From NCBI GenBank assembly GCA_016219325.1, contig JACRNH010000010.1, forward strand, positions 1 through 57,635: 57,635 nt of DNA, written 5' to 3'. The notes beneath the pieces are model-generated. The model was not told the origin of the DNA, made no database searches, and worked only from the letters and a program-made list of their open reading frames with translations. This stretch comes from Candidatus Collierbacteria bacterium (GTDB lineage Bacteria; Patescibacteriota; Microgenomatia; UBA1400; JACPES01). Shown here piece by piece: positions 1,259 through 18,124 of the stretch. Numbering within the stretch: the stretch's first letter is position 1; every line of letters begins with the position of its first letter. A program made the position numbers and the translations under genes.

Positions 1259-1259
1259 T

Positions 1260-2066: not shown

Positions 2067-2628
2067 TGGCTCTTTTAATAAGCCCTACGTCATCTTTAAA
2101 TCTACCTATTCCTGTGTTGCAACTATCACATACCCAACCCCTTATTTCTCCAGTGCGGTGATTATGATCAAGGACTACCTTACTAGTTATACCGGCAATA
2201 GTTCGCTTAGCACATATCGGGCACTCAAAAGGTTCATTTTGCGGCTTGGTTTTTGACCATTTAAGTTTTTCTTTTGGAGTCGGGCTCACCCCTTCAAGTT
2301 GTTTCCTGCATTCTTGACATGATGGTCTTCGAACTTGTCTATTGTTTACGCCATTTTGATTTCTTGCAAATTCTGTGGTGTTTAGAAGTTTATGGCAGAT
2401 ATTACAAATTTTTTTGAGAAAACCGTCTCCCGTTTTTTTGACATCAAAAATCTTAAAATCATTTTTATTTAACGCAACCTCCTGCCAAATTCTTATGAAA
2501 AAAATAGGGATACCTTCTTTCGACTCAGGTTTTATAATACCAACGTCACCCTTTTTAACCAAAACTCCACTTGGCCTTTTGGTATTTCTTTTGGCTATTA
2601 CAAACTTATCCGTAAAAGATGAATTCAT
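2050..2628 (-). CDS. Hpy99I-family type II restriction endonuclease (beta-beta-alpha-Me, two Zn sites)
   Basis: KICNICH..RPSCQECRK..CPIC..LDHNHRTG..WVCDSCNTGIGRFKDD matches the motif order of R.Hpy99I as recalled; convergent with the MTase. Confidence 0.8.
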   Translation of the reverse strand: MNSSFTDKFVIAKRNTKRPSGVLVKKGDVGIIKPESKEGIPIFFIRIWQEVALNKNDFKIFDVKKTGDGFLKKICNICHKLLNTTEFARNQNGVNNRQVRRPSCQECRKQLEGVSPTPKEKLKWSKTKPQNEPFECPICAKRTIAGITSKVVLDHNHRTGEIRGWVCDSCNTGIGRFKDDVGLIKRAIKFLE

Positions 2629-2702
2629 TGCCAGTTTGTCATTCTAGCATAGCCGATCGTCATACTAGAAGGTTTGATTGCCCCTCAGGGTAAAATATAG
2701 CT

Positions 2703-3485
2703 ATGAGGAAGTATTGGGCTATGGCCCGGGCCGAACTTCTGGATGCGATTGCCGAGAAAGAAGAGATCTTAATTTGGATCATTATTGACGCCATTCCGGT
2801 TTTTGTGATGGGATCTTTGTGGCTGGCAAACAGCCATAACTTGGTTCAGGTCAGTATTTCTGAAATGGTGACTTATTACTTGGTGGTGATGATTACATCC
2901 AGATTAACAGAGTTCTATTTTGACGAATATGTTCAGGATGAAATCAGGGATGGGACATTTTCCAGATATTTGCTTAAGCCCTTGAGGCTGCCTTGGCTGT
3001 TTTTGCCGGTGATTTGGGGCCGGAGGCTGTTTGAGAACATATTACTGATCCCGGTGTCTGCTTTAATTATTATTCTTTTCAGGCAATATCTGGTGATTCC
3101 GGATTTGTCTGCCTTGGCGCTATTTGCGGTTTATTTGGTTATTTCTTCATTCATCCGTTATTCCCTGTCGGTGTTAATCACTACGGCGGCTTTTTATTGG
3201 GAACAAACTTATTCCCTAGTCCATTTGCGCTGGATTTTGGAAGCAGTAGCCGGAGGCTATGTTTTGCCTTTGATTTTTTATCCTTCGTGGATAAGGTTTA
3301 TTCCGGACAGTCTGCCATTTAAATATATTTTCTTTGTTCCGACGGCGGTGTTTATCGGCATGATTTCGGTCCAAGAGGCGGTTGCCAGCCTGCGGCCGGC
3401 TTTATTATGGATGGTCGGATTATTGTTATTAAGCAATTTGCTGTGGAAGACCGGGGTCAAAAAATATTCCAGCGTCGGAGGCTAA
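2703..3485 (+). CDS. ABC-2 family (DUF990) permease A, pair 1
   Basis: Six-TM hydrophobic protein with EIRDGTFSRYLLKP, LPFKY..FVP and C-terminal LWKTGVKKYSSVGG. Confidence 0.85.
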   Translation: MRKYWAMARAELLDAIAEKEEILIWIIIDAIPVFVMGSLWLANSHNLVQVSISEMVTYYLVVMITSRLTEFYFDEYVQDEIRDGTFSRYLLKPLRLPWLFLPVIWGRRLFENILLIPVSALIIILFRQYLVIPDLSALALFAVYLVISSFIRYSLSVLITTAAFYWEQTYSLVHLRWILEAVAGGYVLPLIFYPSWIRFIPDSLPFKYIFFVPTAVFIGMISVQEAVASLRPALLWMVGLLLLSNLLWKTGVKKYSSVGG

Positions 3486-4277
3486 ATGAAAACATTAATA
3501 AGATATTTATCTCTATACCGGAAAGTATTCATTCAGTCGGTAATGCAGAATTTGGCATATCCGCAAAATTTCATGACCTGGATGATGGTGGATATTGCTT
3601 GGGCGATCGTGAATATAGGATTTTTCCGGATTTTGTTATTCACTCTGCCGGAAATATCGGGTTGGAATTTTGACCAATTAGCCATACCTTTGGGAATTTT
3701 ATATTTGCTGAATACGCTGATATGGGGATTTTTTTACGGGAATATGAACGCGATCCCGCAGATGGTGGATAAAGGCGAATTGGATCTATTGCTGACAAAA
3801 CCGGTTAATTCCCAATTTATTGTTTCTACCCGTCAAATAGGATTAGGGAGTTTGCCGTCGTCTGCTGCCGGGGCCTATTTATTGTGGTATGGATTCCAAG
3901 CCAATGCCGTTTCCTGGAAAATGGTTTTTATTATCCCGTTGGCGTTATTGTTTTCCGGAATAATTTCCTATTCTCTTTGGCTGATGACGGTGACTTTGTC
4001 ATTTTGGACCAACCGGCTTTACAACTCTCCAGATCTGTTTGCTCACGCGGTGGATATATCCAGGTACCCTGTCACGATTTTCCGCCAGCCTTTCAGATTT
4101 ATGTTTACTTTTATTCTGCCTTTCGCGATTTTAGGATTTTTGCCGGCAGAAATTATTTTGGGCAGGATCGGGCTTGTTTGGCTGTTTTGGCCGTTGGGAT
4201 TGGCGGTTTTATTTTCCTTTTTATCCAGCCGGTTTTGGCAATTTTCCCTTAAGCGCTACCAAAGCGCCTCGTCGTAA
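3486..4277 (+). CDS. ABC-2 family (DUF990) permease B, pair 1
   Basis: GELDLLLTKP, RYPVTIF, C-terminus FWQFSLKRYQSASS*. Confidence 0.85.
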   Translation: MKTLIRYLSLYRKVFIQSVMQNLAYPQNFMTWMMVDIAWAIVNIGFFRILLFTLPEISGWNFDQLAIPLGILYLLNTLIWGFFYGNMNAIPQMVDKGELDLLLTKPVNSQFIVSTRQIGLGSLPSSAAGAYLLWYGFQANAVSWKMVFIIPLALLFSGIISYSLWLMTVTLSFWTNRLYNSPDLFAHAVDISRYPVTIFRQPFRFMFTFILPFAILGFLPAEIILGRIGLVWLFWPLGLAVLFSFLSSRFWQFSLKRYQSASS

Positions 4278-4309
4278 ATATTGTTATGTCCCGATGATAT
4301 AATTCAGTC

Positions 4310-4579
4310 ATGTCTCAAGTACTAAGTTTTAAAGTAATAATGGAACAAGATGAAGATGGGGTGTTTGTGGCCTCAGTGCCGGCTATTCCCGGCTGTCATA
4401 CACAGGGAGATACCTACGAAGAAGCCGTAAATAATATTGAAGAGGCGATAGGCGTATGTTTGGAGGAAGCCCGGGAAAACAAGGACTACAAGAATCAAAT
4501 TGTTTGGCCAAATCAAGAAAGTAAATCCAATTTTTTGGGAATTTTGGATATGACCGTTAAAACTCCGTCATTTGCATGA
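4310..4579 (+). CDS. hicB: HicB-family antitoxin
   Basis: EQDEDG.FVASVPAIPGCHTQGDTYEEA..NIEEAI; ATGA overlap with hicA; leaderless promoter TGaTATAAT-N6-ATG at 4295..4312. Confidence 0.9.
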   Translation: MSQVLSFKVIMEQDEDGVFVASVPAIPGCHTQGDTYEEAVNNIEEAIGVCLEEARENKDYKNQIVWPNQESKSNFLGILDMTVKTPSFA

Positions 4580-4800
4580 GCAAACCACCGGTTCTTAAGG
4601 CAAAGGAATTAATTAAAATTGTTGAGAGATTAGGGTTTGTTAACTCCAGAAGCAGAGGAAGTCATTTTTTCTTTAAGCATAAAAACGGAAGAACTACGGT
4701 TATACCTGTCCATTCCGGGAAGACAATAAGTTTGGGTTTGATGCGAAGCATTTTAAAAGACATCGGAATGTCAGTAGATGAATTCAGAAAATATCTTTAG
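4576..4800 (+). CDS. hicA: HicA-family toxin
   Basis: LGF...RSRGSHFFFKH..GRTTVIPVH.GKTI..GLMRSIL. Confidence 0.9.
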   Translation: MSKPPVLKAKELIKIVERLGFVNSRSRGSHFFFKHKNGRTTVIPVHSGKTISLGLMRSILKDIGMSVDEFRKYL

Positions 4801-4880
4801 AGGAATTAAGAAATTAATGGAAAAGAAATTCTTGGAAAAATTATAAGTAGAATAAAAGTGCTGTTGAAATAATTAGAGTT

Positions 4881-5030
4881 TCGTCTTGGTGGCAATCAAA
4901 TATTCGACCTATATCGAATATAGACAATAATTTCATAAAGAAAATCGAAAATACTATCGGGAGGATCCTTGAAGGAGAATCCTTTTTGGTAAGGTTTGAT
5001 ATTGTTATCTAGCTGCTGGCGGAGGAATAG
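4881..5030. repeat. Deletion scar: degenerate copy of 10664..10736 joined to a 72-bp copy of 11874..11945
   Basis: 4881..4953 aligns without gaps to the promoter/operator/start of gene 10718 (ATG changed to ATA at 4935). 4959..5030 matches 11874..11945 with 5 mismatches. Confidence 0.8.
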
Positions 5031-5797
5031 AAGCGGACGGCGAAATGGAAAAATTTCCGTGAGATAATAAATAAAATTAAATTGCTAAGCAGCACCCACG
5101 GTAAAATCTCCCAGCCGGCGGTTCCCATCAATACTTTTGTCGGGATGGTAGCGATAAGCCCAACCGGAACGACGAATAATATTGCGCCTCCGGCTACGCC
5201 TGTAAAAATGTCAGTAGTCCGTTTGCCAACATCCAGAATTTCGGCGAATAAATCATTGAGATTAAAAATATTCTGGAGCCAGAAACTTAAACTGGCGATC
5301 ATAAAATATAGGCTATAAAAAGCCGCGACTGCCAAAATAATCAGAATTAAAAATAATATCCATGAGCCGAAGCTGACAGCCAGTCCCATTTTCCCCAAAT
5401 ACCATGGTAAGGCAAAAGCTATGATTAATACTCTGGCCAGTTGGTTGGGATACATTTTTGTTAAAGAAACTAATAGCTGGGCATCTACCGGGCGCAATAA
5501 ATAGAAATCAAATCCGCCGGTTCTGACTAATTCGGCCAGCTGATTGGCCCCGGGAATAACCAGAGACTTAATAAATGAACCGGTAATATAGTAAACCAAA
5601 ACCAAAAGCATGGCTTGCGACCGGGTCCAGCCGGCGATGGTTCCGGCTTGCTCAAAAACCAAAGAAATTCCGGCCAAACTTGTCAAAATCCAGACAATAT
5701 TGAACACTAAAAAAAACAACAAATTGAATTTAAATTCAAACTCGCGTTTGATTGCGTAATCAAAAGAAGATAGAAACAATTTTAATAGCCGTTTCAT
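5009..5797 (-). CDS. ABC-2 family permease B, pair 2
   Basis: GGFDFYLLRP; C-terminus RKFFHFAVRFYSSASS*. Confidence 0.85.
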   Translation of the reverse strand: MKRLLKLFLSSFDYAIKREFEFKFNLLFFLVFNIVWILTSLAGISLVFEQAGTIAGWTRSQAMLLVLVYYITGSFIKSLVIPGANQLAELVRTGGFDFYLLRPVDAQLLVSLTKMYPNQLARVLIIAFALPWYLGKMGLAVSFGSWILFLILIILAVAAFYSLYFMIASLSFWLQNIFNLNDLFAEILDVGKRTTDIFTGVAGGAILFVVPVGLIATIPTKVLMGTAGWEILPWVLLSNLILFIISRKFFHFAVRFYSSASS

Positions 5798-6588
5798 TGT
5801 CCGAAAGCCGAGTAGGCTTTAACTCCTTTCTTCCATAAGAACCGGTATAACATCAATAAGGCAATTGACCAAAGTCCGGCCATAAGCAGTGAAACTAAAA
5901 GCTCTGGACCTTGTGTTTTATGGAATATAATTTCTACCGGAAAAGACAATTCATACCGGAACGGTAAAAACATATTTATGGTTTTCAGCCAATTCGGAAG
6001 AAACGAAACCGGCATCCATAACCCGCCTATAAATATAAATATTGTCCAAAACAAGAAGTTGACATATTCAACCTCGGTAAACCAGAAAGCTAAAGTCACC
6101 ATTGACATAGTGGTAAAAAATGAAATAACAACTCCGGTAAATATGGCCGGAATTACTAAAAGCCAGTCCCAGCCGGGAGTCAGAATTACCCGCAGATTTA
6201 ATATTTTTAATATGCTAAAAACGAAAATGGCGGCGATTGCCAGAATTCCCATGGCGGTAAATTTAAATCCGGCCTCTTTGGCAAACCAGGCTTTGGCATA
6301 ATTGAGCGGTTTAATCAGCATTGTCAGGATATATCCGGACCTGATTTCTTCAGCGATAGGATGAAATGGATTCCACATCAAAAACCATTCCGCGAACATG
6401 ATAACAACGTAGTAGCTGATAATTTCTTCTCTGGTGTATCCGCCTATAATCGTGTTGCCGGCTGCCAGCCACATCAGTAGGGCGATGCCGGTCCTGACCA
6501 GACTAATCAGCATCCAGATTACGATAGCTCCGCGGTAAGTGACATTGCTGCCGAATGAGGCTTTGGCAAAAGCCAAAAAAATCTTCAT
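5794..6588 (-). CDS. ABC-2 family permease A, pair 2
   Basis: EEIRSG..LIKP, LPFRY..SFP, LWKKGVKAYSAFGQ; leaderless TGaTACAAT-N6-ATG promoter. Confidence 0.85.
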   Translation of the reverse strand: MKIFLAFAKASFGSNVTYRGAIVIWMLISLVRTGIALLMWLAAGNTIIGGYTREEIISYYVVIMFAEWFLMWNPFHPIAEEIRSGYILTMLIKPLNYAKAWFAKEAGFKFTAMGILAIAAIFVFSILKILNLRVILTPGWDWLLVIPAIFTGVVISFFTTMSMVTLAFWFTEVEYVNFLFWTIFIFIGGLWMPVSFLPNWLKTINMFLPFRYELSFPVEIIFHKTQGPELLVSLLMAGLWSIALLMLYRFLWKKGVKAYSAFGQ

Positions 6589-6639
6589 GTAAAGATTGTA
6601 TCAGCAACGTCTTGTCATAAATCGTGATAGTATAAAAAT

Positions 6640-6843
6640 GTGATTATTGTTTCTAATTCTTGGTTTAAAGTTCTTTCCGGTCTTTTTATTAATCTTGGGG
6701 CCGGTTGGTTCGGAGTAGTTTTCATCGCTCCGGGAATTGTCGGTCAATCACTTTTGTTTTCATCTATTGTGTTGACCAAGAACATACTGCTTGGTACACT
6801 ATGTCTGGTAATCGCCAAGAAAATGGAGGATTTTATTTCATGA
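6640..6843 (+). CDS. Small 2-TM membrane protein (module gene 1, copy 1)
   Basis: W..LSGLFINLGAGWFG..FIAP; near-identical paralog at 10287..10502; ATGA overlap with the next gene. Confidence 0.7.
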   Translation: MIIVSNSWFKVLSGLFINLGAGWFGVVFIAPGIVGQSLLFSSIVLTKNILLGTLCLVIAKKMEDFIS

Positions 6844-6965
6844 CAAACGATAGATTTATCGAGATTATCAGCAGTGCCCAAGGTTTTACCCTTTTGTTTA
6901 TTATCGCGGTAATGTTGATGCTTATAGCTTTGAAAAAGACTCCTCAGAGCTCCAAAACTCGTTAA
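6840..6965 (+). CDS. Small 1-TM protein, 41 aa (module gene 2, copy 1)
   Basis: MTNDRFIEIISSAQGFTLLFIIAVMLMLIALKKTPQSSKTR; the paralog at 10499..10624 differs mostly at synonymous or conservative positions. Confidence 0.65.
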   Translation: MTNDRFIEIISSAQGFTLLFIIAVMLMLIALKKTPQSSKTR

Positions 6966-7012
6966 TAATTTGAGCTGTTGTAATGTTTCTTTTAGAAAAA
7001 AGCTAACTTACA

Positions 7013-7141
7013 ATGAATATAAATCTTGAACAAGGATTCAACACAGCTTCTATATTGATCACTCTTTATGTCATCGCGATAACGCTGATTTATTTTGTAT
7101 TTCTGCGGTCGTCTCTAAGATCTTCGGTAAAAGGAAAATAG
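7013..7141 (+). CDS. Small 1-TM protein with basic tail, 42 aa (gene-2-like)
   Basis: Hand translation MNINLEQGFNTASILITLYVIAITLIYFVFLRSSLRSSVKGK*; same architecture as 6840..6965. Confidence 0.5.
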   Translation: MNINLEQGFNTASILITLYVIAITLIYFVFLRSSLRSSVKGK

Positions 7142-7149
7142 CCGGAAGC

Positions 7150-7200
7150 TCAACTGCTGGCGGAGGAGTAGTGTTTGAGGGAGTAGAGCCAGAATTTTCT
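7150..7200 (-). repeat. Orphan permease-B 3' tail
   Basis: Minus strand reads RKFWLYSLKHYSSASS*, versus RKFWLYSLRHYSSAGG* at the end of 13275..14069. Confidence 0.9.
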
Positions 7201-7215
7201 GCTATACTTTGGAAT

Positions 7216-7545
7216 ATGACTAAGGCACAATTCCAAAAACATTTGCAAAGAGTAACCAAAATCATAGTGGATAAATATCAGCCAGAGAGAATCATTTTAT
7301 TTGGTTCGGCGGCTAGCGACAATATTCATGAAGATAGCGACGCGGATTTAGCTGTTATTAAAAAGACAAACAAGAATTTTTACGACCGGATAGGCGAGGT
7401 CAGTGGGTTAGTCCCTCACGGAATCCCTTTGGATATTTTAGTTTATACTCCGGAAGAATTCGAGCAAATGAGGACGGATAAGTATGGATATTTTGTTAGA
7501 GATGAGATTTTAGGCAAAGGAAAAGTTTTATATGAATCGAGTTAA
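7216..7545 (+). CDS. Minimal nucleotidyltransferase (MNT) antitoxin
   Basis: PERIILFGSAA...EDSDADLAVI; start reassigned to ATG 7216 after TGcTATACT-N6 and by alignment with paralog 12341..12670. Confidence 0.85.
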   Translation: MTKAQFQKHLQRVTKIIVDKYQPERIILFGSAASDNIHEDSDADLAVIKKTNKNFYDRIGEVSGLVPHGIPLDILVYTPEEFEQMRTDKYGYFVRDEILGKGKVLYESS

Positions 7546-7923
7546 AGACTGGCTATTAGCAGCCGATCTTGATTTGAAAGCTGCCCGCGGTTCGCTGAAT
7601 GAAGGTGCTCCCAACATTGCTTGTTTTCTATCTCATCAGGCAGTTGAAAAAATCCTGAAAGCTTATTTATTGCAACGCTATCTGAAAGTTCCTAAATACA
7701 TTCTTTAGTTGAGCTATTAGATATGGCGACATTGAACGCGATTGGGCTTAAAGCGTTTAGCGATCAGATTGTTTTTCTCAACCAATTTTATATCCCAACC
7801 CGCTATCCGGATGCCTTGCCCGGCTCTTTGCCCGAAGGATTGCCATCTATAGAAGTTGCCGAAAAGGCTATAGTTCACGCCACAGAAATAGTCGAATTTA
7901 TAAAACCCCTTCTTGCATCCTAA
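7532..7923 (+). pseudogene. HEPN-domain toxin with a 1-nt frameshift near 7695
   Basis: MNRVKDWL..SHQAVEKILKAYL..VPK continues in another frame as (I)HSLVELL..LNQFYIPTRYPDALPGSLP; intact paralog at 11974..12354. Confidence 0.8.
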
Positions 7924-8033
7924 CTACTGGCACTGGAGTAGTGTTTGAGGGGGAACTTCCAAAATATGCGCGACAGAACAAACAAAACTATCGTCATCGC
8001 TACCGTCGCCGCTGCCAAAGCGCCTCCTCCTAA
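7920..8033. repeat. Two fused, back-to-back orphan permease-B tails
   Basis: Minus 7920..8015 reads AAATVAMTIVLFVLSRIFWKFPLKHYSSASS*; plus 8007..8033 reads RRCQSASS*. Confidence 0.85.
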
Positions 8034-8440
8034 ATCGGCTCGAAAATAATCTGTTTTTGACGGACGCTAAAATTCCAACTATAGACTACGTCTAACAAAT
8101 CTACCCTGCCCAATAAGAACGGCGTAGAGTTTTCATCTGTAATTGATGCCCGAACTGTCAATTTATTATCTGGAAGAATCAGGTCAACTTTTACCAACCA
8201 TGTTTTTACTCTAAAACCCCCCAACCCCTCAGCCACGCCCTGCTTTTCTTTGCTTAAATCTATTCCTAGCCGAGAAGCCATAAAATGCGGCAGAGTAGTC
8301 AAATCGGCCCCGGTATCAACCAAAAAATTAAACTTGGCGACTCCATTAACCGTTTTGAGCTTAATCGGAATAATCGGGGTAAAAATACGGCCAATATAAG
8401 GTATGGCTGAATACTGAAAAGGAAATGATAGTTTATCCAC
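8030..8440 (-). CDS. Retropepsin-like aspartic protease
   Basis: FLVDTGADLT catalytic motif and LLGR motif; single 136-aa domain. Confidence 0.8.
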   Translation of the reverse strand: MDKLSFPFQYSAIPYIGRIFTPIIPIKLKTVNGVAKFNFLVDTGADLTTLPHFMASRLGIDLSKEKQGVAEGLGGFRVKTWLVKVDLILPDNKLTVRASITDENSTPFLLGRVDLLDVVYSWNFSVRQKQIIFEPI

Positions 8441-8645
8441 GCCAATATAAACTCAAAGAACCATATTTAGGTACATGGCTAATAACCACCTTAGAAAAGT
8501 CAATCCGTTTTTTTTCCGCGTCTTCCCACATCTTTTTTATATCCCGCCCATGAGCCAATACCCTCCCGGACGCTTCGGAAAACGCTACAAATCCGGGACC
8601 ATATCTTTTCATCAAGCCGACAAACTTTTGGCCTTGTTTCTTCAT
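8433..8645 (-). CDS. Small partner of the aspartic protease (DUF5678-like)
   Basis: 70 aa, KRYGPGFVAF..GRVLAHG.D; overlaps the protease start; leaderless TGgTACACT-N6-ATG. Confidence 0.6.
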   Translation of the reverse strand: MKKQGQKFVGLMKRYGPGFVAFSEASGRVLAHGRDIKKMWEDAEKKRIDFSKVVISHVPKYGSLSLYWRG

Positions 8646-8669
8646 GAGTCTAGTGTACCATAGCTCTAA

Positions 8670-9458
8670 ATGAAAAAACTTTTTGCCGTCATCCGCGCCT
8701 ATACTCTTGACGCTCTAACTTATCGGGGAGACATCTTTATTTACACTGTTGTCGGCGCCATCCATCCTATTATTTTATTAATCATTTGGCTGGCGGTCAT
8801 TGCCTCCGGCGGCAATCCGCCCATGAATCGCCAAGAATTTCTTTTGTATTATTTTACCGTCTTAGTCATAAAAGTATGGACCACCGCTTGGCACGCCCGT
8901 GAATGGTCGACAAGAATCCGCTTGGAGGAATTATCCCCATACTTACCTAAACTCGCGGCCTTTCCGTTTTTTCTGTTAGGAAACAACATCGGCGAAAAAA
9001 TTTTAAAAAGCATATATTTGCTGCCGCTTATTTTATTAGCCGGAACAGCGCTAAATATCAACCTTCCCTAACTGTCGATTGAGACAATTCTATTATTAAT
9101 AGTCAGCTGGCTCCTGGCCGCAATCTTAACATTTGCCATTGAATTATCTGTATTACTAACCACGTTTTGGCTGGACGATATCGAGTCGCCGGACAATTTC
9201 GTCGTTTTTTCCTCGTATATTTTCTCCGGCCAATTCATCCCGCTGATCGCTTTCCCTCAAGCAATTCAATCATTTCCACTCTTCTCGCCTTTTCGCTACA
9301 TTCTGTCGTTTCCGGTCGAAATTTTTACCGGCAGAATCATCGGTTGGAATATTCCGGTGGGCTTTGCTCTTCAAATATCCTGGTGTATCATCATGATTTT
9401 TCTCTGTCGCCTCCTATGGAAAAAAGGTTTAATTCGTTATAGCGCCGTCGGCGCCTAA
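8670..9458 (+). pseudogene. ABC-2 permease A, pair 3, with an in-frame TAA at 9069..9071
   Basis: The same frame continues past the stop to SPFRYILSFP..LLWKKGLIRYSAVGA* (262 codons, as in the paralogs). Confidence 0.85.
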
Positions 9459-9467
9459 CCACCTAAT

Positions 9468-10250
9468 ATGAAATATCTCAAATTATTTCTGCTTTTTATC
9501 CGTTACAACCTGATCAGAGACATGGAATTCCGGGGAAATTTTTTGCTGTTGATAGCCGTCGATATTTTGTGGGTCTCATTTCAGCTCTTGCTAATAGAAT
9601 TGTATTTCCAGTTCACCGGTTCAATCTTCGGCTGGACCAAACCCCAGGTCTTCGTTCTCATGGGATTATTTCGAATAGTCAAAGGCGTCGTTGACGTATT
9701 CTTAAGACCCAATATCAACCAATTGCCGATAGCAGTTAATCGCGGCGAACTGGACTACATTCTTACCAAACCCCAAGACAGCATGTTTCTTGCCAGCGTC
9801 AAAAGGCACGCCTATACCGAATTTTCAACTATCGTTTTGGGGTTAGCCATATTTGCTTACGGTCTATTACTGGACGGAGCTTTTAATTTCGGCAAAATTG
9901 TCTTCCTGCTATTTCTTTTACCATTCGGGGCAATCATGTTTTATTGTTTACTTTTCTGCTTCGCTTCCCTATCGCCGTTTATTCATCGCCTGTCTGCCAC
10001 TTACCAGTACTACGACATTCTATCTAATCTTTTCCGCTTTCCCACCGACTTTTTGGGGATGCAAATTCGCCAGTTAAACCTGGTTCTTTTCCCTCTGGCA
10101 ATTGTCGCCACCGTTCCGGCAAAATTTATTTTAGGCAAATCCGGCTGGAATTCTATCGTTGCCATGACGTTTATCAGTTTGATCACTTTGGCTCTGACCC
10201 GCCGTTTCTGGTTCTTCGCTCTCCGCCGCTACCAATCCGCCAGCTCATAA
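9468..10250 (+). CDS. ABC-2 family permease B, pair 3
   Basis: GELDYILTKP; C-terminus FWFFALRRYQSASS*. Confidence 0.85.
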   Translation: MKYLKLFLLFIRYNLIRDMEFRGNFLLLIAVDILWVSFQLLLIELYFQFTGSIFGWTKPQVFVLMGLFRIVKGVVDVFLRPNINQLPIAVNRGELDYILTKPQDSMFLASVKRHAYTEFSTIVLGLAIFAYGLLLDGAFNFGKIVFLLFLLPFGAIMFYCLLFCFASLSPFIHRLSATYQYYDILSNLFRFPTDFLGMQIRQLNLVLFPLAIVATVPAKFILGKSGWNSIVAMTFISLITLALTRRFWFFALRRYQSASS

Positions 10251-10286
10251 AATCTGCAATTTTTCGGTATTCCCAAACATGATAAT

Positions 10287-10502
10287 ATGAATTCCATTAT
10301 GACAATCCTGTCTCCGCAGTGGCTAAAAGTTCTCTCGGGGCTATTTGTCGATCTCGCCGCCGGCTGGTTCGGAGTAGTTTTCATCGCTCCGGGAATCGTC
10401 AGCCAATCTCTAATACTGACTTCGGCCATATTGACCAAAAACTTTCTCCTTGGTACACTATGTCTGGTAATCGCCAAAAAGATGGAGGATTTTATTTCAT
10501 GA
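10287..10502 (+). CDS. Small 2-TM membrane protein (module gene 1, copy 2)
   Basis: Paralog of 6640..6843. Confidence 0.7.
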   Translation: MNSIMTILSPQWLKVLSGLFVDLAAGWFGVVFIAPGIVSQSLILTSAILTKNFLLGTLCLVIAKKMEDFIS

Positions 10503-10624
10503 CAAACGATAGATTTATCGAAATCATCAGCAGCGCCCAAGGATTCACCCTTTTATTTATTATCGCCGTAATGTTGGTACTCATTGCTTTTAAGAAAACT
10601 CCCCAAAGCTCTAAAGCTCGTTGA
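10499..10624 (+). CDS. Small 1-TM protein (module gene 2, copy 2)
   Basis: MTNDRFIEIISSAQGFTLLFIIAVMLVLIAFKKTPQSSKAR*; ATGA overlap. Confidence 0.65.
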   Translation: MTNDRFIEIISSAQGFTLLFIIAVMLVLIAFKKTPQSSKAR

Positions 10625-10627
10625 ATT

Positions 10628-10672
10628 TTCCATAATTTCTCCCTTCGCCGCTACCAAAGCGCCTCGTCTTGA
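10628..10672 (+). repeat. Orphan permease-B 3' tail
   Basis: Reads FHNFSLRRYQSASS*; CGCTACCAAAGCGCCTCGTC is identical to the end of gene 3486..4277. Confidence 0.9.
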
Positions 10673-10704
10673 CAATAGGTTAATATTCGATTAATATCGA
10701 ATAT
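10669..10704 (+). promoter_or_regulatory. Sigma70 promoter TTGACA-17-TAATAT with inverted repeat TATTCGA-N6-TCGAATA over the -10
   Basis: Read directly; the inverted repeat is conserved in the scar copy at 4901..4920. Confidence 0.7.
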
Positions 10705-10717
10705 AGGTGGTATTCTT

Positions 10718-11305
10718 ATGAAGAAAATCGAATATATTTGGAGGGAACTTTTAATCCAAACTCTGGAAAATCGGGAAACGGTATTTGGCCAACAAGCTTT
10801 AACGGCTAAATTCGGACTGTCTTCGTCTACGGTTAATTTGGCTTTATCCCCATTGCGAAAACTAGGGGCAGTCCGCATCGGCAAGCGTCATTCTGAGGTA
10901 ACTGATTACGAAAAAATTCTTTATCATTGGGCCAACCATCGGAATTTGGAAACGGATATCGCCGTGAAGCTCAGGGTAAATCTGCCTGTTATGGAAATTG
11001 AAGGAAGGTTGCCGGAAAACTCCATCCCCACAGGATATACGGCAGTCAGAGAAAGATTCGGCGAGCCTCCGTCCGATTATGGCAAAGTCTATTGTTACCA
11101 TTTCAATCCTGAAATTGTGGCCGCAAGATTTGCCGCAGATATTATTAGGGGAGAGTCTAATGTTTTTATTATTAAGGCAGACCCATTTTTAGGCTCTCAA
11201 ATTTGTCTGCCGCAAATATTTGTCGATTTGTGGAATTTGCGCGATTGGTACGCCAAAGATTTTTGCCGCTTTATTATGTCTAAGTTTGAAGAAAAGATGT
11301 TATGA
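10718..11305 (+). CDS. Winged-helix protein, probable type IV TA (AbiEi-like) antitoxin
   Basis: N-terminal HTH (QQALTAKFGLSSSTVNLAL), C-terminal PQIFVDLWN; ATGA-coupled to a nucleotidyltransferase. Confidence 0.6.
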   Translation: MKKIEYIWRELLIQTLENRETVFGQQALTAKFGLSSSTVNLALSPLRKLGAVRIGKRHSEVTDYEKILYHWANHRNLETDIAVKLRVNLPVMEIEGRLPENSIPTGYTAVRERFGEPPSDYGKVYCYHFNPEIVAARFAADIIRGESNVFIIKADPFLGSQICLPQIFVDLWNLRDWYAKDFCRFIMSKFEEKML

Positions 11306-11874
11306 ATTATTACCGCGATCAGGTAACCCAAAAAAGCTGGCGGATATTGACAAATTTGTCTTCAAAATATCAGTTTGTTTTAATCGGCGGATGGGCGGTA
11401 TGGCTATATACGAAACAGTTGAAATCCAAGGACATAGATATTGTCGTTGGTTTAGACCAGCTGGGAAAATTAAGCGCTGATTTTGAGTTGGGGAAAAACG
11501 AGAGGCTTAAAAAATATGAGATTAGGCAGGAGGAAATTGAAATTGACGTTTATGTTCCATTTTATTCCGAGCTTGGCGTCCCCGGAGAGATCATTTTACA
11601 AACTGCCGTAAATCTAGAAGGATTTAATGTGCCTGCGCCGGAAACATTGTTAAAATTGAAAATGGTCGCGTATCAAGGCCGCAAAGGGTCGGATAAGGGC
11701 AGGAAAGATTTAGTGGATATGATTAGCTTGTTGTGTTTGCCTGAACTGAAATGGACGGATATCTCACCGGAAATCATAAACCTGGCTCTTAGCCAGTCAG
11801 AAATTCCGGAATTGTCTCTAAATTCTCACCAGTATTCCAAGTATAAGAAAATCTGGAAAACTAGGTTTTTGTAG
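11302..11874 (+). CDS. Nucleotidyltransferase-superfamily protein (probable type IV TA toxin)
   Basis: LIGGWAV...SKDIDIVV, LKLK..AY..R...KGRKDL.D. Confidence 0.7.
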   Translation: MNYYRDQVTQKSWRILTNLSSKYQFVLIGGWAVWLYTKQLKSKDIDIVVGLDQLGKLSADFELGKNERLKKYEIRQEEIEIDVYVPFYSELGVPGEIILQTAVNLEGFNVPAPETLLKLKMVAYQGRKGSDKGRKDLVDMISLLCLPELKWTDISPEIINLALSQSEIPELSLNSHQYSKYKKIWKTRFL

Positions 11875-11902
11875 GGAGGATCCTTAAAGGAGAATCCTTT
11901 TT
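11875..11902 (+). terminator. Putative intrinsic terminator (copy at 4960..4987)
   Basis: Imperfect GGATCCTT/AAGGAGAATCC stem followed by T5, just after a stop codon; duplicated. Confidence 0.4.
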
Positions 11903-11923
11903 GGTAAGGTTTGATATGGCTAT

Positions 11924-11965
11924 CTAGCTGTTGGCGGAGGAGTAGTGTTGAAGGGAGAATTGAGA
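11924..11965 (-). repeat. Orphan permease-B 3' tail
   Basis: Minus strand reads SQFSLQHYSSANS*. Confidence 0.85.
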
Positions 11966-11973
11966 TCTAAAAA

Positions 11974-12354
11974 TCAAGCGATTTGCTTCCGGATAAATCC
12001 TACAATTCCTTTTGCGTTTTGCAATGCCATGTCAGCCTCTTGTTTTGTAGGCAGTCCGGTTTCTAAAGATCCGGCTATGGCGTCGGGATATCTGGTCGGT
12101 TGATAAAATCGGTTCAAATATTTTAATTGAGAGATAATTTCGTCGTTAGTTATTTCTGCCTCTTTAGCCAATTTCATCAAATCGTGGGTTTTAGAAATTT
12201 TATGGAACTTCTTTAAAATAAGTGCTTTAATAGCCTTTTCGGCTGCTTGTTGAGAATGGAATGCGATTGGAGCCGAAAGGTCGGTTCCAACCCCCAAAGT
12301 TTTGGCCGATTTTAAATCGATTTCAGCGGCTTTTATCCAGTCAATTGGCTTCAT
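11974..12354 (-). CDS. HEPN-domain protein (MNT-HEPN toxin)
   Basis: AFHSQQAAEKAIKA, KTHDL, TRYPD. Confidence 0.85.
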   Translation of the reverse strand: MKPIDWIKAAEIDLKSAKTLGVGTDLSAPIAFHSQQAAEKAIKALILKKFHKISKTHDLMKLAKEAEITNDEIISQLKYLNRFYQPTRYPDAIAGSLETGLPTKQEADMALQNAKGIVGFIRKQIA

Positions 12355-12670
12355 AAATTATTTTTCCTTTTTCTATGATTTCATCTCTGACAAAATATCC
12401 GTATTTATCATTTTTCATTGTTTCAAATTCTTCAGGAGTATAAACAATGATGTCTAAAGCAATATCATGTTCGACCATATCGCTGACTTCACCGATGCGG
12501 TCGTAAATATTTTTTTTAGTTTTTTTGATAATCGCCAAATCAGCATCACTGTCTTCGTGAATCAGTCCGGAAGCCGCCGACCCAAACAGAATAATTTTTT
12601 CCGGTTGATACTTTTTGGCGATAGTGGCAACGATTTTATCCAGATGTGACTGGAAAGTTTTGTTTGTCAT
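12341..12670 (-). CDS. MNT antitoxin
   Basis: PEKIILFGSAA..EDSDADLAII; leaderless TGcTATACT-N6-ATG. Confidence 0.85.
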   Translation of the reverse strand: MTNKTFQSHLDKIVATIAKKYQPEKIILFGSAASGLIHEDSDADLAIIKKTKKNIYDRIGEVSDMVEHDIALDIIVYTPEEFETMKNDKYGYFVRDEIIEKGKIIYEAN

Positions 12671-12690
12671 AATTGGAGTATAGCAAATTT

Positions 12691-12747
12691 TTAACTGCTG
12701 GCGGAGGAGTAGAAGCGGACGGCGAAGCGGAAAAATTTCCGCGAAGA
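12691..12747 (-). repeat. Orphan permease-B 3' tail
   Basis: Reads SSRKFFRFAVRFYSSASS*, nearly identical to the end of gene 5009..5797 (RKFFHFAVRFYSSASS*). Confidence 0.9.
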
Positions 12748-12748
12748 T

Positions 12749-12973
12749 TTACAAGTATTTCCTAAACTCGCCAGCCGACAATTTAATATCGCTCAAGATC
12801 GATCTCATCAGTCCCGGACCGATTGTCTTCCCCGGATGAACCGGAACCACCGTTGTTCTCCCATCGCTATGTCTGAAGAAAAAATGGCTGCCTCTTCTTC
12901 TGGTATTTACAAATCCCAACTTGTTCAACCCTCTTATCGCTTCTTTTGATTTTAAAATCGGAACTTTGCTCAT
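12749..12973 (-). CDS. hicA: HicA-family toxin
   Basis: RRGSHFFFRH.DGRTTVVPVH; paralog of 4576..4800. Confidence 0.9.
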   Translation of the reverse strand: MSKVPILKSKEAIRGLNKLGFVNTRRRGSHFFFRHSDGRTTVVPVHPGKTIGPGLMRSILSDIKLSAGEFRKYL

Positions 12974-13239
12974 GTAGCAAATGTCACTTTTACAGGTAAA
13001 TCAATTACTCCTAAAAAACGTGGTCTTTTTTCTTCTCCCGGCCATATAATCTGCTGACGATAATTTCTGTTTTCCTCGGCTTCTTCCAAACACAACTCAA
13101 TCGCTTCTTCGATATTTTTCATCGCTTCCTCGTAGGTTTTTCCTTGAGTGTGGCAGCCGGGAATTACCGGCACGTTGGCTACAAACCAGCCGTCTTCATC
13201 TTGCTCAACAATAACTTTAAAATTCAAAATCTTAGGCAT
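12970..13239 (-). CDS. hicB: HicB-family antitoxin
   Basis: EQDEDGWFVANVP.IPGCHTQG.TYEEA; paralog of 4310..4579. Confidence 0.9.
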   Translation of the reverse strand: MPKILNFKVIVEQDEDGWFVANVPVIPGCHTQGKTYEEAMKNIEEAIELCLEEAEENRNYRQQIIWPGEEKRPRFLGVIDLPVKVTFAT

Positions 13240-13274
13240 ATTTATTAATTATACACCGGATGAACTTCGGTGTT

Positions 13275-14069
13275 TCAGCCCCCGGCGCTGCTGTAATGCC
13301 GCAGGGAATACAGCCAAAATTTCCGCGACAACACAAACAGAACTATCGCCGTCGCTACCGTCGCCGCTGTCATTTCGCCAGATAATTTTCCCCACAGCGC
13401 CTTGGTCGGAAAACTCACCACCATAAATAACGGCAACAAAAAATTAAACGCCCATGAATTTGCTATCCGGAACGCATCTGACGGAGTTCGGCTGGTTTGA
13501 TCAAATAACTCCAATAAAAAACTTATCATATTATCTAATCTCCGGGTGTAAAAATTTAAAGTTACTAGTAATAGCCAAATGCTGTATAGAATCATTACCG
13601 CAGATACTAATAATAAAAGAAAAATGATCATTTTCTCCAAATTCATTGAGTAATTTTTTATCGTAATTAACAATATTGATATTCCGATCAGAAATCGGGC
13701 AATATTTGCGTGACTGAAATTAAACATGGTAGCCAAAAATTGGCTATCCAGGGGTTTCGTAAGGAGAACATCCAGCTCGCCGGTATTTATCCTTTCGGGA
13801 AGGTTTATAAAATTCAACAGGAAAAAAGTATAGGCGAACCCGGTAACAATAGAGAAAACTCCGGTTAGAGTTAGTAATTCTGTTCTGGACCATCCGGCTA
13901 AATTGGGGGCTTGTTGAGAATATAAAAGGACTGCAAATATTGCGAACATTGCCCAGCTAACAGTGGTCAGAACATTAGTTAAAAGACTAAAACGATAAAC
14001 CAAAATAAGGCTGGTGTTGGCCTTGATAATCTGCCAATAAATTTTGACATATCTTTTAAAATTATTCAT
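13275..14069 (-). CDS. ABC-2 family permease B, pair 4
   Basis: GELDVLLTKP; C-terminus YSLRHYSSAGG*. Confidence 0.85.
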   Translation of the reverse strand: MNNFKRYVKIYWQIIKANTSLILVYRFSLLTNVLTTVSWAMFAIFAVLLYSQQAPNLAGWSRTELLTLTGVFSIVTGFAYTFFLLNFINLPERINTGELDVLLTKPLDSQFLATMFNFSHANIARFLIGISILLITIKNYSMNLEKMIIFLLLLVSAVMILYSIWLLLVTLNFYTRRLDNMISFLLELFDQTSRTPSDAFRIANSWAFNFLLPLFMVVSFPTKALWGKLSGEMTAATVATAIVLFVLSRKFWLYSLRHYSSAGG

Positions 14070-14872
14070 TGCCTGGTATCTGAAAAAGCTTTTAAACCGC
14101 GTTTAAAAAATATTGACGACAAAAGTCCTAATCCAATCATCCATAATAAAGCCATGAATAAATCTATTGAATAGTTAGACAATTCCTGCTGCTCAAAAAT
14201 AATTTTTGCGGGGAAATAGTAAAAAAACCTAAACGGAAAGAACCAAGTAATGGATTGTAGCCATTTTGGCAGAAAGTCTAACGGAATTAGCAAGCCGGAC
14301 AAAAGGGCATGGATCATCCAAAAAAAATTTACAAGCCCATCATTATCTGTTATCCAAAATGAGGTTATGCCAAGTAAAAATCTTTGGAAAAAAATTATCA
14401 TATAAGAAATTGCTGCGAATAAAACCGCTATCGTTAAAGACGGCAATGATGTTGATACGCTTAAATATTGACGGAAAATAATAACCAGTAAAGAATACGG
14501 TAATAAAGAGAATAGGAAACGGACAGTTTTCCAGCCGTTACTTCCGGAAAATATATACATTAAATAGGAAACCGGCTTTATTAAATATTTGATTAGGCCC
14601 CCTTCTTTGATATCGCGGAAGCCAATCGGGAATTCAATATAATGGTTTAACGTGAGAGTTAGAAACGCCACCACAATATAATAAGAAATTAGTTTGTTTA
14701 ATTCCCATCCGGACGCAACTTTACCGCTAAAACTAAAAATTCCCAGCCATAATATAATTGATACCGTCGGCGGAATAAAATCTTCAAGAATATAAACTAC
14801 TAGCCGGGCGCGGTCAGCTAAAGCGTCCTGTATAGAATTAACATAAACCCTCCAGTATTTTTTCATTAACAC
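14066..14872 (-). CDS. ABC-2 family permease A, pair 4
   Basis: DIKEGGLIKYLIKP, FPFRF.YYFP. Confidence 0.85.
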   Translation of the reverse strand: MLMKKYWRVYVNSIQDALADRARLVVYILEDFIPPTVSIILWLGIFSFSGKVASGWELNKLISYYIVVAFLTLTLNHYIEFPIGFRDIKEGGLIKYLIKPVSYLMYIFSGSNGWKTVRFLFSLLPYSLLVIIFRQYLSVSTSLPSLTIAVLFAAISYMIIFFQRFLLGITSFWITDNDGLVNFFWMIHALLSGLLIPLDFLPKWLQSITWFFPFRFFYYFPAKIIFEQQELSNYSIDLFMALLWMIGLGLLSSIFFKRGLKAFSDTRQ

Positions 14873-14904
14873 AAATTGTAGCAGTTAAGATATAATCTTT
14901 AGAT

Positions 14905-15883
14905 ATGCCGATTATTACAGCCAAAAACCTGACTAAGTACTATAAAGTTCATCAGAAAGAGCCGGGGCTGGGGGGATCGCTAAAGTCGCTGTTTCATCGC
15001 AAATATTATGATGTTAAGGCGGTGGATGATATTTCATTTGAGATTGAAGAAGGGGAGCTGATCGGCTTTATAGGCCCAAACGGAGCCGGAAAAACTACCA
15101 CTCTAAAGATGTTGTCCGGATTGCTGTATCCGACTTCCGGCCAAGTCAGCGTTTTAGGATTTGAACCCTGGAAGCGCGACCATAAATACCTAAAACAAAT
15201 GTCCCTTGTTATGGGCCAAAAAAACCAACTGTGGTGGGATTTGCCGGCCCAAGAAAGTTTTATTCTAAACAAAGAAATTTACGAGGTCCCGGACGAACAA
15301 TACAAAAAGACTCTCGGAGATTTGGTTGAGTTGCTGGACGTTAAAGATGTCTTAAATGTCCAAGTCAGGAAATTATCGTTGGGCCAACGGATGAAATGCG
15401 AGCTGATCGCCGCTCTTTTACATTCTCCCAGAGTTTTATTTTTGGACGAACCGACTATCGGATTGGACGTAGTCATGCAAAAGGCGATGCGGGATTTTAT
15501 CGCCGAGTACAACAAAAAATATAACGCCACGATTATTTTAACCAGCCATTACATGGAAGACGTTAAAAAATTGGCAAAAAGAGTGGTGATTATTGATCAC
15601 GGGAAACTGGTTTTTGACGGAAAATTGAAAGACATTATTGACAAATACGCCGAACATAAGATTTTAACTTTGGAGTTTTCGGAAGAATTCCCCAGGGAAA
15701 AATTGGAAAAATTCGGAGAAATAGATAGTTGGGAATACCCCAGAGCTGTTATAAAAGTCTCCCGCCAGTTGGCCTCAAAAAGGGCGGCGGAATTACTGGA
15801 AACTTTGCCTGTGGCGGATATCAATATCGAAGAACCGCCGATTGAAGCGATAATCCGCAGGGTCTTTGCCGGAGGCAAAGACG

Positions 15884-15906
<23 letters not shown>
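14905..15906 (+). CDS. ABC transporter ATP-binding protein (COG4586-type)
   Basis: Walker A GPNGAGKTT, signature LSLGQ, Walker B FLDEPT, SH loop. Confidence 0.95.
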
Positions 15907-17107
<1,201 letters not shown>

Positions 17108-17112
17108 TGGTG

Positions 17113-17232
17113 GCCCCAAAGTACACTTGCTTCGGTCCGTGCTCTGCGTGCACGCTACCGAAGAGCGTGACTTCGGGGTTCGGGCGTGACAGCTGATTTT
17201 CCGCTGGGCGTAAAATCAGGTCTCGTCCGAAA
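17113..17232. repeat. Double-hairpin element (second copy in frame in rplO, 55369..55505)
   Basis: GCCCCAAAGTA..CTTGC..GAGCG..ACTTCGGGGTTCGG..CAGCWGATTTT..AAAATC..TCRTCCGAA is shared with 55369..55505. Confidence 0.7.
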
Positions 17233-17244
17233 AGGGCGATAATT

Positions 17245-18027: not shown

Positions 18028-18030
18028 TAT

Positions 18031-18114: not shown

Positions 18115-18124
18115 ACGGGATAAA

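Follow-up and report, generated by a model that had tools for sequence, protein, structure and literature searches.

The stretch of DNA analysed here (the window, 57,635 nt, contig JACRNH010000010.1 of assembly GCA_016219325.1, from a Candidatus Collierbacteria bacterium) carries a locus of ABC transporter genes in which small gene modules are interspersed with permease genes of family PF06182 (ABC2_membrane_6, formerly DUF990) and with six short fragments resembling the 3' ends of those permease genes. With moderate confidence, we regard these six fragments as genuine relics of PF06182 "B" permease genes that mark the joints of a hypervariable island, shaped by displacement and reshuffling through homology or microhomology, and by deletions that left scars, with no recombinase beside the island. 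The host, a groundwater bacterium, belongs to the Microgenomates, within the Candidate Phyla Radiation (CPR, or Patescibacteria), whose members have genomes of ~1 Mb, few classical mobile elements, and no cultured genetics. Its genome (G000 in what follows; 1.11 Mb, 29 contigs, of which C1 is the contig of the window) encodes at this locus five A/B pairs of PF06182 permeases (~260 aa each, numbered A1B1 to A5B5), with one A gene broken, and a single ABC ATPase gene. The permeases matched the family at 117-171 bits for B1-B5 and at 62-80 bits for A1, A2, A4, and A5, against a cut-off of 22, and the B paralogues share 23-27% protein identity with each other.

The six orphan tails, named after one of their coordinates, had been proposed in an initial annotation made from the sequence letters alone, and their translations agreed with it exactly, each of them ending in S-A-[S/N]-S-stop:

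7150-7200, minus strand: t7150, 17 codons, RKFWLYSLKHYSSASS-stop; equivalent to the B4 tail of the related locus L055 (88% over 49 nt)
7920-8015, minus strand: t7920, ~24-32 codons, AAATVAMTIVLFVLSRIFWKFPLKHYSSASS-stop; its stop overlaps the stop of a HEPN gene
8007-8033, plus strand: t8033, 9 codons, RRCQSASS-stop, of the YQSASS type with C for Y; its stop overlaps the stop of an Asp-protease gene
10628-10672, plus strand: t10672, 12-15 codons, FHNFSLRRYQSASS-stop, B1-like
11924-11965, minus strand: t11924, 12-14 codons, SQFSLQHYSSANS-stop
12691-12747, minus strand: t12691, 17-19 codons, SSRKFFRFAVRFYSSASS-stop; 98% identity to the B2 tail of L055

A six-frame motif scan of the whole genome (1.11 Mb) gave 14 matches, 12 of them between 3.4 and 18 kb of C1, corresponding to the six orphans, the five intact B genes, and A1; the other two were weak and without the S-A-S-S core, and a tighter motif had a single match in the remaining 1.10 Mb of G000. 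A degenerate DNA pattern detected nine matches in G000 versus one for the reversed control; across 41 genomes it produced ~1-9 matches per genome, with 0-6 in controls, being too noisy when used alone, and it was replaced by six-frame motif scans of fetched loci. Pairwise alignments confirmed that the tails come from different paralogues and start at different points, as had been claimed. Homology to the intact B genes stops at the stop codon in five of the six; the exception is t11924, where it extends for 50 nt beyond the stop, over a spacer found after B2 as well. The tails have their 5' edges between 27 and ~97 nt from the stop, and the upstream module typically ends 1-8 nt short of the tail start. 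All plus-strand tails are of the YQSASS type, as in B1 and B3, and the minus-strand ones of the YSSAxx type, as in B2 and B4. Several tails are mosaics; among them, t7920 has a B4-like 5' part and a t7150-like 3' part, and t11924 a t7150-like 5' part followed by 21 final nt plus spacer that are B2-like (93% to the B2 tail and spacer of L055). Finally, t7920 and t8033 are joined head to head through 9 shared nt (repeats D3 and D6).

It is barely credible that these repeats are chimeric joins produced in metagenome assembly. In run X1, which probably represents the source sample, each of the six tails is covered together with both flanks by a Logan contig with 0 differences, contigs of X2, a second sample of the same study, bridge at least t7920/t8033 and t12691, and depth over the array is flat (~60-87). 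Since the tails are bridged in single contigs at flat depth, they are not local assembly chimeras; in addition, the same architecture is found in 21 independent loci from many assemblies. What could be held in favour of an artefact is that the longer repeats (near 5000, 6735-6833, 10252-10492, and 11890-11916) interrupt the Logan contigs and that no record spans the whole array. Runs X3 and X4 contained small shares of the stretch and were not interpreted.

Orphan tails recur beside variable modules in related genomes, as the initial annotation had anticipated. The locus search used the ATPase as query; the eight B proteins share no conserved stretch of 7-10 residues. Among species-representative genomes, this search named the relative of the same genus as a 'Ca. 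Collierbacteria' metagenome-assembled genome, the rest being Amesbacteria, Daviesbacteria, and other Microgenomates. PF06182 was present in 29 of the 41 genomes searched within the order (G000 included), with 10 matches in G000 and no more than 6 in any other. In the gene maps of 134 fetched loci (L-numbers; G001 is a related genome) a common frame is kept, consisting of recA-recX-rny-HU, the island, and ATPase-A5-B5. Within the operon A1B1-ATPase-A5B5, the island is hypervariable and located mostly upstream of the ATPase, where it includes 0-3 A/B pairs in relatives and 4 in G000, with differing modules that are mostly toxin-antitoxin. In a tree of B proteins, the upstream ones (including B1-B4 of G000) form a fast-evolving clade, and B5 falls in a slower sister clade. 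After merging loci with an identical 33-nt tail (135 to 87 non-redundant), the motif scan identified 35 orphans in 24 loci, four of which (L023:688, L041:7539, L090:12519, and L124:4035) were dropped as cut or split genes; tails in open reading frames (ORFs) reaching the contig start had been set aside as cut (7 in the non-redundant set). Thus, 31 true orphan tails were found in 21 of 87 loci, versus ~1 motif match per Mb elsewhere. Thirty of the 35 orphans lie within the span of the A, B, and ATPase genes and the other five within ~2 kb of it, with lengths from 5 to 45 codons (median 12; no more than 18 codons in 27/35).

Apart from the tails, the ORF listing and the Pfam scans of the 2.7-18 kb region of the window revealed the following gene order, in which the modules correspond to two HicB/HicA pairs, two nucleotidyltransferase (NTase; MNT)/HEPN pairs (one HEPN split), an Asp-protease/DUF5678 pair, a DUF6036 NTase with a partner lacking family assignment, and two copies of a pair of small membrane proteins, neither copy with a Pfam match (wHTH, winged helix-turn-helix):

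2703-3485 (A1) and 3486-4277 (B1), plus strand: resident PF06182 pair (Pfam), syntenic with G001 and L055; B1 ends in KRYQSASS-stop
4310-4800, plus strand: hicB-hicA module 1, hicBA1 (Pfam; blastn)
4899-4953 (55 nt) and 4959-5008 (50 nt), plus strand: 5' remnant of a wHTH-NTase module and spacer (repeats D9 and D5); the spacer is the one that follows the B2 stop, and L055 has it too
5009-5797 (B2) and 5794-6588 (A2), minus strand: inverted B1-type pair (Pfam, tree), 86% DNA identity to L055
6640-6965 and 7013-7141, plus strand: membrane-protein pair, copy 1, and a 42-aa ORF, no Pfam match; 6976-7195 is 93% identical to L056/L129
7171-7923, plus strand: MNT (likely start 7216) and HEPN, split into 7532-7708 and 7723-7923 (Pfam); 80% identity to the intact pair of L057
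8030-8440 and 8433-8645, minus strand: retropepsin-like Asp protease and DUF5678 (Pfam)
8670-9071 plus 9167-9442, and 9468-10250, plus strand: A3 pseudogene with an internal TAA, and intact B3 (Pfam, ORFs)
10287-10624, plus strand: membrane-protein pair, copy 2, directly 3' of the B3 stop (repeats D1 and D4)
10718-11923, spacer included, plus strand: wHTH-like gene (no Pfam match) and DUF6036 nucleotidyltransferase
11874-11923: second copy of the 50-nt spacer (repeat D5; the wHTH repeat is D9)
11974-12354 and 12341-12670, minus strand: HEPN and MNT, an intact module (Pfam; repeat I1)
12749-13239, minus strand: hicA-hicB module 2 (Pfam), 78-97% identity to L059/L062
13275-14069 (B4) and 14066-14872 (A4), minus strand: B4 is a mosaic with a crossover near 13381-13412 (Pfam)
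14905-18027, plus strand: conserved core, with ATPase 14905-15906, IVP/bAvd-like ORF 15906-16268, A5 16268-17107, and B5 17245-18027

Of the eight modules, five directly follow a tail on its own strand, and the other three converge with one, stop against stop, so that the earlier statement that every cassette stands immediately 3' of a tail was right for the former only. On the minus strand the order is B4, hicBA, t12691, MNT-HEPN, and t11924, and on the plus strand B3, membrane pair, t10672, and wHTH-NTase. The idea of an integron-like array in chronological order was not supported, as the modules point both ways and tails are composites of one another. In addition, the 55-nt wHTH-module remnant next to B2 (D9) indicates that internal deletions also occurred.

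Comparison of related loci located breakpoints at the tails with nucleotide resolution. Loci L087 and L089 share 99.95% identity over 11,420 nt, and where L089 has an A-B pair (1.54 kb), L087 has an rRNA adenine dimethylase gene instead, with one break right after a shared ATG and the other 28 nt upstream of the point where the B stop codon ends. The absence of mismatches in the 2.6 kb to the right of the tail, versus five in the 174 nt on its left, places one edge of the exchanged tract at the tail. The only other near-identical pair with an island difference, L102/L103, has its breaks at the A start and at the ATPase start, outside tails. More distant comparisons involved L055, L056, and L129 (ATPases with 94-97% aa identity to that of G000, DNA ~85%), whose islands are simpler than that of G000: L055 contains A1B1, B2A2, and B4A4 with neither modules nor orphans, and L056/L129 show a B4-like orphan tail where B4A4 would stand. 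Two differences set G000 apart from L055. One is an insert of 682 nt, made up of hicBA and the wHTH remnant (through 4958), placed precisely behind the B1 stop; the other is a segment of 6.2 kb that separates the B4 body from the L055-type B4 tail, still present as t7150 (88%, 49 nt). Between G000 and L056, this orphan differs by ~6 nt in the position of its 5' edge.

The resident B4 gene is itself a mosaic, with 85-90% identity to L055 up to ~13410 and 47-70% after that point. Its last ~110 nt together with hicBA show 78-97% identity to L059/L062, whose ATPases are only 77-79% identical to that of G000; being far closer to L059/L062 than the ATPases are, the unit formed by the B4 3' end and hicBA moved between lineages. 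This B4/hicBA/t7150 event has exactly the anatomy that the initial annotation had proposed when it considered the B 3' end as a capture site, and structural changes have repeatedly had a joint at the B 3' end. The hicA stop followed by TCGCGGAAATTTT (13 nt) is common to G000, L057, and L062. Past these 13 nt, the tails of L057 and L062 stay B4-type and t12691 of G000 turns B2-type (98% to the B2 tail of L055). One L057 tail aligns to both t7920 and t12691, which is what a deletion between these two direct tails would give. As a separate observation, the A1B1 pair of G000 has ~76-78% DNA identity to those of L055, L056, and G001 alike, with flanks at 82-87% (L055/L056) and 81% (G001), and the A1B1 pair of L055 is 81.5% identical to that of G001, which suggests that the resident pair has been allelically replaced too.

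Could the tails be products of decay alone? Surplus A/B pairs would then have been deleted from a streamlined genome, leaving tails as passive scars with no part in acquisition, which survive as further deletion would hurt the neighbouring gene or a promoter past the stop. Several loci look this way: in L025/L067 a 55-aa ORF runs in frame from an A head into a B tail; L042, L043, and L044/L114/L115 lack A1B1 and keep 11-44 tail codons before the ATPase; A genes are broken or split in G000 (A3), L040, L041, and L103; and the head-to-head union of t7920 and t8033 through 9 nt is as expected from a deletion across two divergent pairs. Moreover, a same-strand gene starts within 82 nt downstream of 17 of the 31 true orphans, and a -10-like hexamer occurs within 20 nt of the stop in 42/133 intact tails (32%) and 11/35 orphan tails (31%), compared with 16% downstream of other ORFs and 6% of random 23-mers; selection may thus favour deletions that spare the end of the tail. 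Nevertheless, decay on its own is rather unlikely. The difference between L087 and L089 is a replacement with one boundary at the tail and not a deletion, the hicBA unit with the B4 3' end moved horizontally, and both the mosaic tails and the finding of the same module plus tail in differing contexts need tail-to-tail recombination. In addition, 8/31 orphans face a convergent gene and guard no promoter, and random deletion ends would need added progressive erosion to leave tails of no more than 18 codons in 27/35 cases.

It is improbable, in turn, that the tail DNA is kept as a functional cis-element, acting as promoter, leader, or coupling signal for each downstream gene. Such a role would agree with the start of the ATPase or of an A gene ~13-45 nt after the B stop in many loci, with TAnAAT directly after the stop, and with the tail kept before the ATPase after the loss of A1B1 in L042-L044. 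A promoter scan detected 39 sites versus 27.6 +/- 6.1 in shuffled sequences, one of which coincides with a tail end: the last codon and stop of t10672 make a perfect TTGACA (-35-like), 17 nt upstream of TAATAT and before the wHTH-NTase module. This is the only one of the six G000 tails where a predicted promoter coincides, whereas four of the six are followed by no same-strand gene, the -10 enrichment is only twofold, and tails vary in length and sequence, some of them being translated as the C-termini of unrelated proteins. Terminator-like sites numbered 12 versus 12.4 expected, with none at tails.

We consider it quite improbable that a site-specific cassette system operates here, in which an Xer-type tyrosine recombinase or a large serine recombinase encoded elsewhere would recognise the tail core and insert or excise cassettes in order. 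Four L054 tails and three G000 tails share an identical core of 17-20 nt (CACTACTCCTCCGCCAG and following), and junctions lie near -27/-28 in t8033, two L054 tails, and L087. Regarding the enzymes, no Phage_integrase (PF00589) or Resolvase match was detected on C1, in agreement with the initial annotation, which had noted no recombinase gene in the window; the whole genome has two Phage_integrase matches (C16 and C25) and five Resolvase matches, all of them off C1. The Resolvase matches are on C9, C11, and C14, four of them in open frames of 476-555 aa, the size of large serine recombinases. Among ten large island ORFs of relatives there was one IS110 transposase and no integrase; the former, in a Gottesmanbacteria contig (L036:10946-11986), lies between A and B downstream of the ATPase. 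A read joint described below, with the geometry of a circle or tandem duplication, could also be counted in favour of such a system. Against it, tail lengths of 5-45 codons leave no fixed cut point. DNA folds of six tail regions (z from -1.0 to +0.7 versus shuffles) showed no attC-like folding or hairpin, no local inverted repeat or dyad was found in or beside the tails, and there was no Rfam match in 2500-18500 at E <= 0.1. No second copy of either 20-nt tail core, with up to three mismatches, was present elsewhere in the genome, including beside recombinase genes. Furthermore, the core is largely explained by amino-acid conservation and varies freely in distant genomes, both orientations are used, modules carry promoter-like sequences, and their order is scrambled between relatives. 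A Chi-like role was also considered, as the complement of the core contains GCTGGCGG, a sequence with 50+44 occurrences in the genome, and the idea was dropped.

Displacement and reshuffling of units, the explanation that we favour, would start from the peculiar conservation of the B 3' end. In 16 B1-type genes of the clade, nt identity is 41% overall versus 71% in the last nine codons, and aa identity 25% versus 86%; in more distant families the tail codons vary freely, so the tail is conserved mainly as protein. Under this protein-level constraint, it is the only stretch where divergent permease alleles share DNA to pair, and general recombination would use these last ~9-18 codons as shared DNA. 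A unit composed of a B 3' end and a module would enter with homology at one end, anchored in a related B body, in the ATPase, or in a flank, its other end would join by short homology or illegitimately near the resident stop, and the resident tail would be pushed downstream. Crossovers between tails at identities of 13-30 nt would then delete, duplicate, or re-associate units, making mosaic tails, and redundant permease bodies would be lost by deletion, leaving their tails as scars. The initial annotation had pointed to comM, and competence-related genes are present in the genome (comEC, dprA, and a gene of ComM architecture); Patescibacteria are considered competent according to PMC12455944.

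Several points weigh against this explanation. RecA and natural transformation as the machinery, as well as the direction of single events, are what we infer for organisms that are uncultured, and the model gives no account of how the first junctions between module and tail form. The 682-nt insertion of hicBA1 after the B1 stop brings no tail duplication, and some tails need no capture and fit plain deletion (L025, L042-L044, and the t7920/t8033 joint), so the earlier notion of a capture site holds only in part. G000, L055, and L056 are about equidistant (82-87%), and L055 could have lost the 6.2 kb through recombination between the B4 tail and t7150. At identical residues, the fraction of identical codons is only modestly raised in the tail (0.53 versus 0.40), and nothing speaks for selection on the tail DNA itself as a site. 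Finally, the sole recombinant at read level is one contig with a depth of 3.5 versus ~70 and 34 nt on its shorter side.

That contig contains the only abnormal joint detected inside the array, where the 13-mer of the hicA joint, in B4 (13315), is joined to t12691 (12732), going back 584 nt; this is the geometry expected if hicBA and a tail had formed a circle or been duplicated in tandem, and we take it as a weak hint. No skip joints between tails, as from deletions, were listed among the Logan contig joints. Together with the existence of fixed module-tail junctions across genera and of orphan tails of local type, this joint raises the possibility, unlikely in our opinion, that the tail is a homology-based counterpart of the integron attC site, with module-plus-tail units looping out, as circles or tandem copies, and re-entering at other tails inside the cell or after DNA uptake. 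If true, this would represent a recombinase-free cassette system for streamlined CPR bacteria, conserved across the Microgenomates, that collects modules of toxin-antitoxin, rRNA-methyltransferase, and ABC-F type beside a transporter with swappable permease pairs.

The fixed junctions concern four module kinds, typed by Pfam, which keep the same union to a tail in several assemblies and in differing array contexts. A DUF5674 gene with an 89-aa protein, located before the ATPase or between two A/B pairs, ends in LQNY[AST]L[RH][HR][YS][QS]SASS-stop; a Phd-PIN module ends in PPHSSSASS-stop; a Fic/HTH protein ends in AVVYSSASS-stop; and an inverted hicBA is followed by IIHL[SRH]HYSSASS-stop. The tail of the 89-aa protein reads YQSASS in the Collierbacteria genome, whose own B1 has YQSASS, and YSSASS elsewhere, like the local B genes. 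Regarding the local type of orphans, in 12 of the 34 tested no more than 2 of ~130 non-local intact tails were closer than the best local tail, a figure inflated by kinship and obtained on a set that still includes three of the four later-rejected orphans; the local B genes in this comparison are themselves very divergent paralogues. In L065 (5402-5422), the 89-aa protein ends in LFQNYSSASS-stop, five codons shorter than the others (LQNYSLRHYSSASS-stop), as if the sequence had slipped between two Y codons.

Elements of several known systems can be recognised in this locus. In the minimal mobile elements of Neisseria, alternative cassettes between conserved genes change places through transformation and homologous recombination, with no mobility genes involved; similarly, here recA-recX-rny-HU and ATPase-A5-B5 are conserved and 0-4 A/B pairs with differing modules stand between them, whereas minimal mobile elements are not known to have an internal repeated junction or stacked arrays with gene-end scars. 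Integron cassettes, clusters of attC sites lacking integrase (CALINs), and Xer-dependent pdif modules also consist of small modules, often toxin-antitoxin, separated by a short repeat, and CALINs and pdif modules have no adjacent recombinase gene; the pdif site, used by XerC/XerD, is 28 bp long, with a 6-bp spacer between its two inverted arms. Unlike those repeats, the tail is a coding gene end without attC hairpin or Xer-type dyad, with variable junctions and mixed orientation. An integron or CALIN was rejected, as there is no IntI-type recombinase by the array, there are no attC folds, three of the eight modules are convergent, and promoter-like hexamers precede modules; pdif modules were rejected as well, no dyad being found in or beside the tails on comparison with the pdif consensus. 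Integrative elements that replace a gene 3' end, such as e14 in icd or ICESt1/CIME accretion at fda, likewise duplicate that end with synonymous differences and can stack in tandem; they have an integrase and a fixed core, in contrast to the variable breaks and 0.4-1.6 kb units seen here, and site-specific integration of this kind was discarded given the lack of an integrase on the contig and junctions 5-45 codons from the stop.

Closer to our case, Rhs and CdiA loci reportedly undergo C-terminal displacement that leaves strings of orphan toxin-immunity genes. As in them, 5'-truncated 3' fragments are found here behind the main gene, with short homology kept that permits later homologous recombination. 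The difference is that Rhs orphans carry the variable toxic tip with its immunity gene, whereas here it is the invariant tip of a permease, with no evident activity of its own. Homology-facilitated illegitimate recombination is said to occur in natural transformation, and it shares with the present locus the single anchor, the microhomology join, and the short loss of resident sequence near the anchor, fitting the geometry of B4 and t7150. It is a mechanism defined in the laboratory and not a type of locus, and its likeness to the CPR case is one of geometry alone.

The closest parallel is that of the orphan immunity arrays of V. cholerae, for which the accessible text of Kirchberger et al. 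2017 (PMC5361080) describes sequential displacement and proposes homology-facilitated illegitimate recombination. With the arrays of that text our locus shares the build-up of small modules 3' of a resident gene, the downstream position of old 3' ends and their partners, orphans that correspond to full genes in other strains, and the apparent absence of a dedicated recombinase. Entry of DNA with a homologous anchor at one end and an illegitimate join at the other is proposed there and would apply here too, in a host that is competent there and may be so here. Correspondingly, the G000 array has orphan 3' fragments with partner genes downstream of an intact gene of the same family (B4 and B3), three orphans that match intact tails of L055 (t7150 at 88%, t12691 at 98%, and t11924 at 93% with spacer), and a mosaic resident gene with an anchor, B4, which switches donor near 13381-13412. 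In Vibrio's type VI secretion system (T6SS) arrays, as that text presents them, a conserved anchor lies upstream of a variable effector end, whereas in our locus the gene body is hypervariable and its extreme 3' end conserved; besides, the passengers here are unrelated to the permease (toxin-antitoxin and others) and stand in both orientations, whole permease pairs are exchangeable, and tails recombine with each other. The earlier assertion that no description of this kind was known went too far, as the same text puts this mechanism forward both for effector-immunity arrays of the Vibrio T6SS and for Rhs loci. For CPR or for PF06182 permeases, no description of the arrangement was found in the literature searched, which did not extend to supplementary files and subscription papers. 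In addition, the clustering of toxin-antitoxin modules in spots of high turnover fits the accessible part of a study on toxin-antitoxin turnover (PMC13617665).

The locus provides a concrete example, recurring in 21/87 loci, of how accessory genes are gained and shuffled in CPR, where a short gene end constrained as protein becomes the place at which modules are exchanged, stacked, and lost. It carries the idea of sequential displacement beyond polymorphic toxin loci, to toxin-antitoxin modules and a membrane transporter, and its events resolved to the nucleotide (L087/L089, the B4 mosaic, and the 13-nt crossover) can serve as natural test cases of short-homology recombination.

Other genes of the relatives' islands include two RrnaAD (KsgA/Erm-family) methyltransferases, an RsmB/F 16S methyltransferase ORF that ends in a tail, and a two-domain ATPase of ABC-F type (loci L087:2766-3563, L104:4518-6313, and L104:8564-10045). 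Judged by sequence resemblance, these methyltransferases and the ABC-F protein, along with the swappable permeases, look like a theme of ribosome protection and efflux (resistance or immunity), and the Erm/KsgA-like and RsmB-like methyltransferases, the ABC-F protein, and the many permease alleles per ATPase hint at a variable resistance or immunity function of which the transporter would be part. In another family (L020:1-2409) the tail pattern is also found behind a B5-type gene, in the order B, an MFS-like 424-aa ORF with a small membrane ORF, and an orphan tail of 33 codons that hardly differs from the intact one, followed by an AbrB-like gene and a PIN-like (vapBC-like) pair, these module names having been read from the letters without Pfam.

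Upstream of A1, at 650-2628, G000 encodes LexA, an N6/N4 DNA methylase, and an Endonuclease VII/His-Me finger nuclease, and G001 and L055 have at that position another minus-strand ORF of ~215-240 aa. The 23S-rRNA-IVP/bAvd-like four-helix ORF is located between the ATPase and A5 in G000, G001, L055, L057, and L058, precedes the ATPase in L029/L081/L069/L094, and is missing from L056 (coordinates elsewhere are L001 13027-13389 and L029 9239-9496); it behaves as another small mobile ORF of the same operon. At its boundary with the ATPase (15883-15917), both X1 and X2 showed many loose ends, an "opposite strands" joint, and doubled depth, which indicates population variants or a repeat at the point of insertion of the IVP ORF. 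Finally, L059 encodes at 850-3036, with a B4 fragment of 53 codons on one side and the ATPase on the other, a 728-aa TraG/VirD4-like type IV coupling protein, which may be what is left of a conjugative element in this CPR genome.

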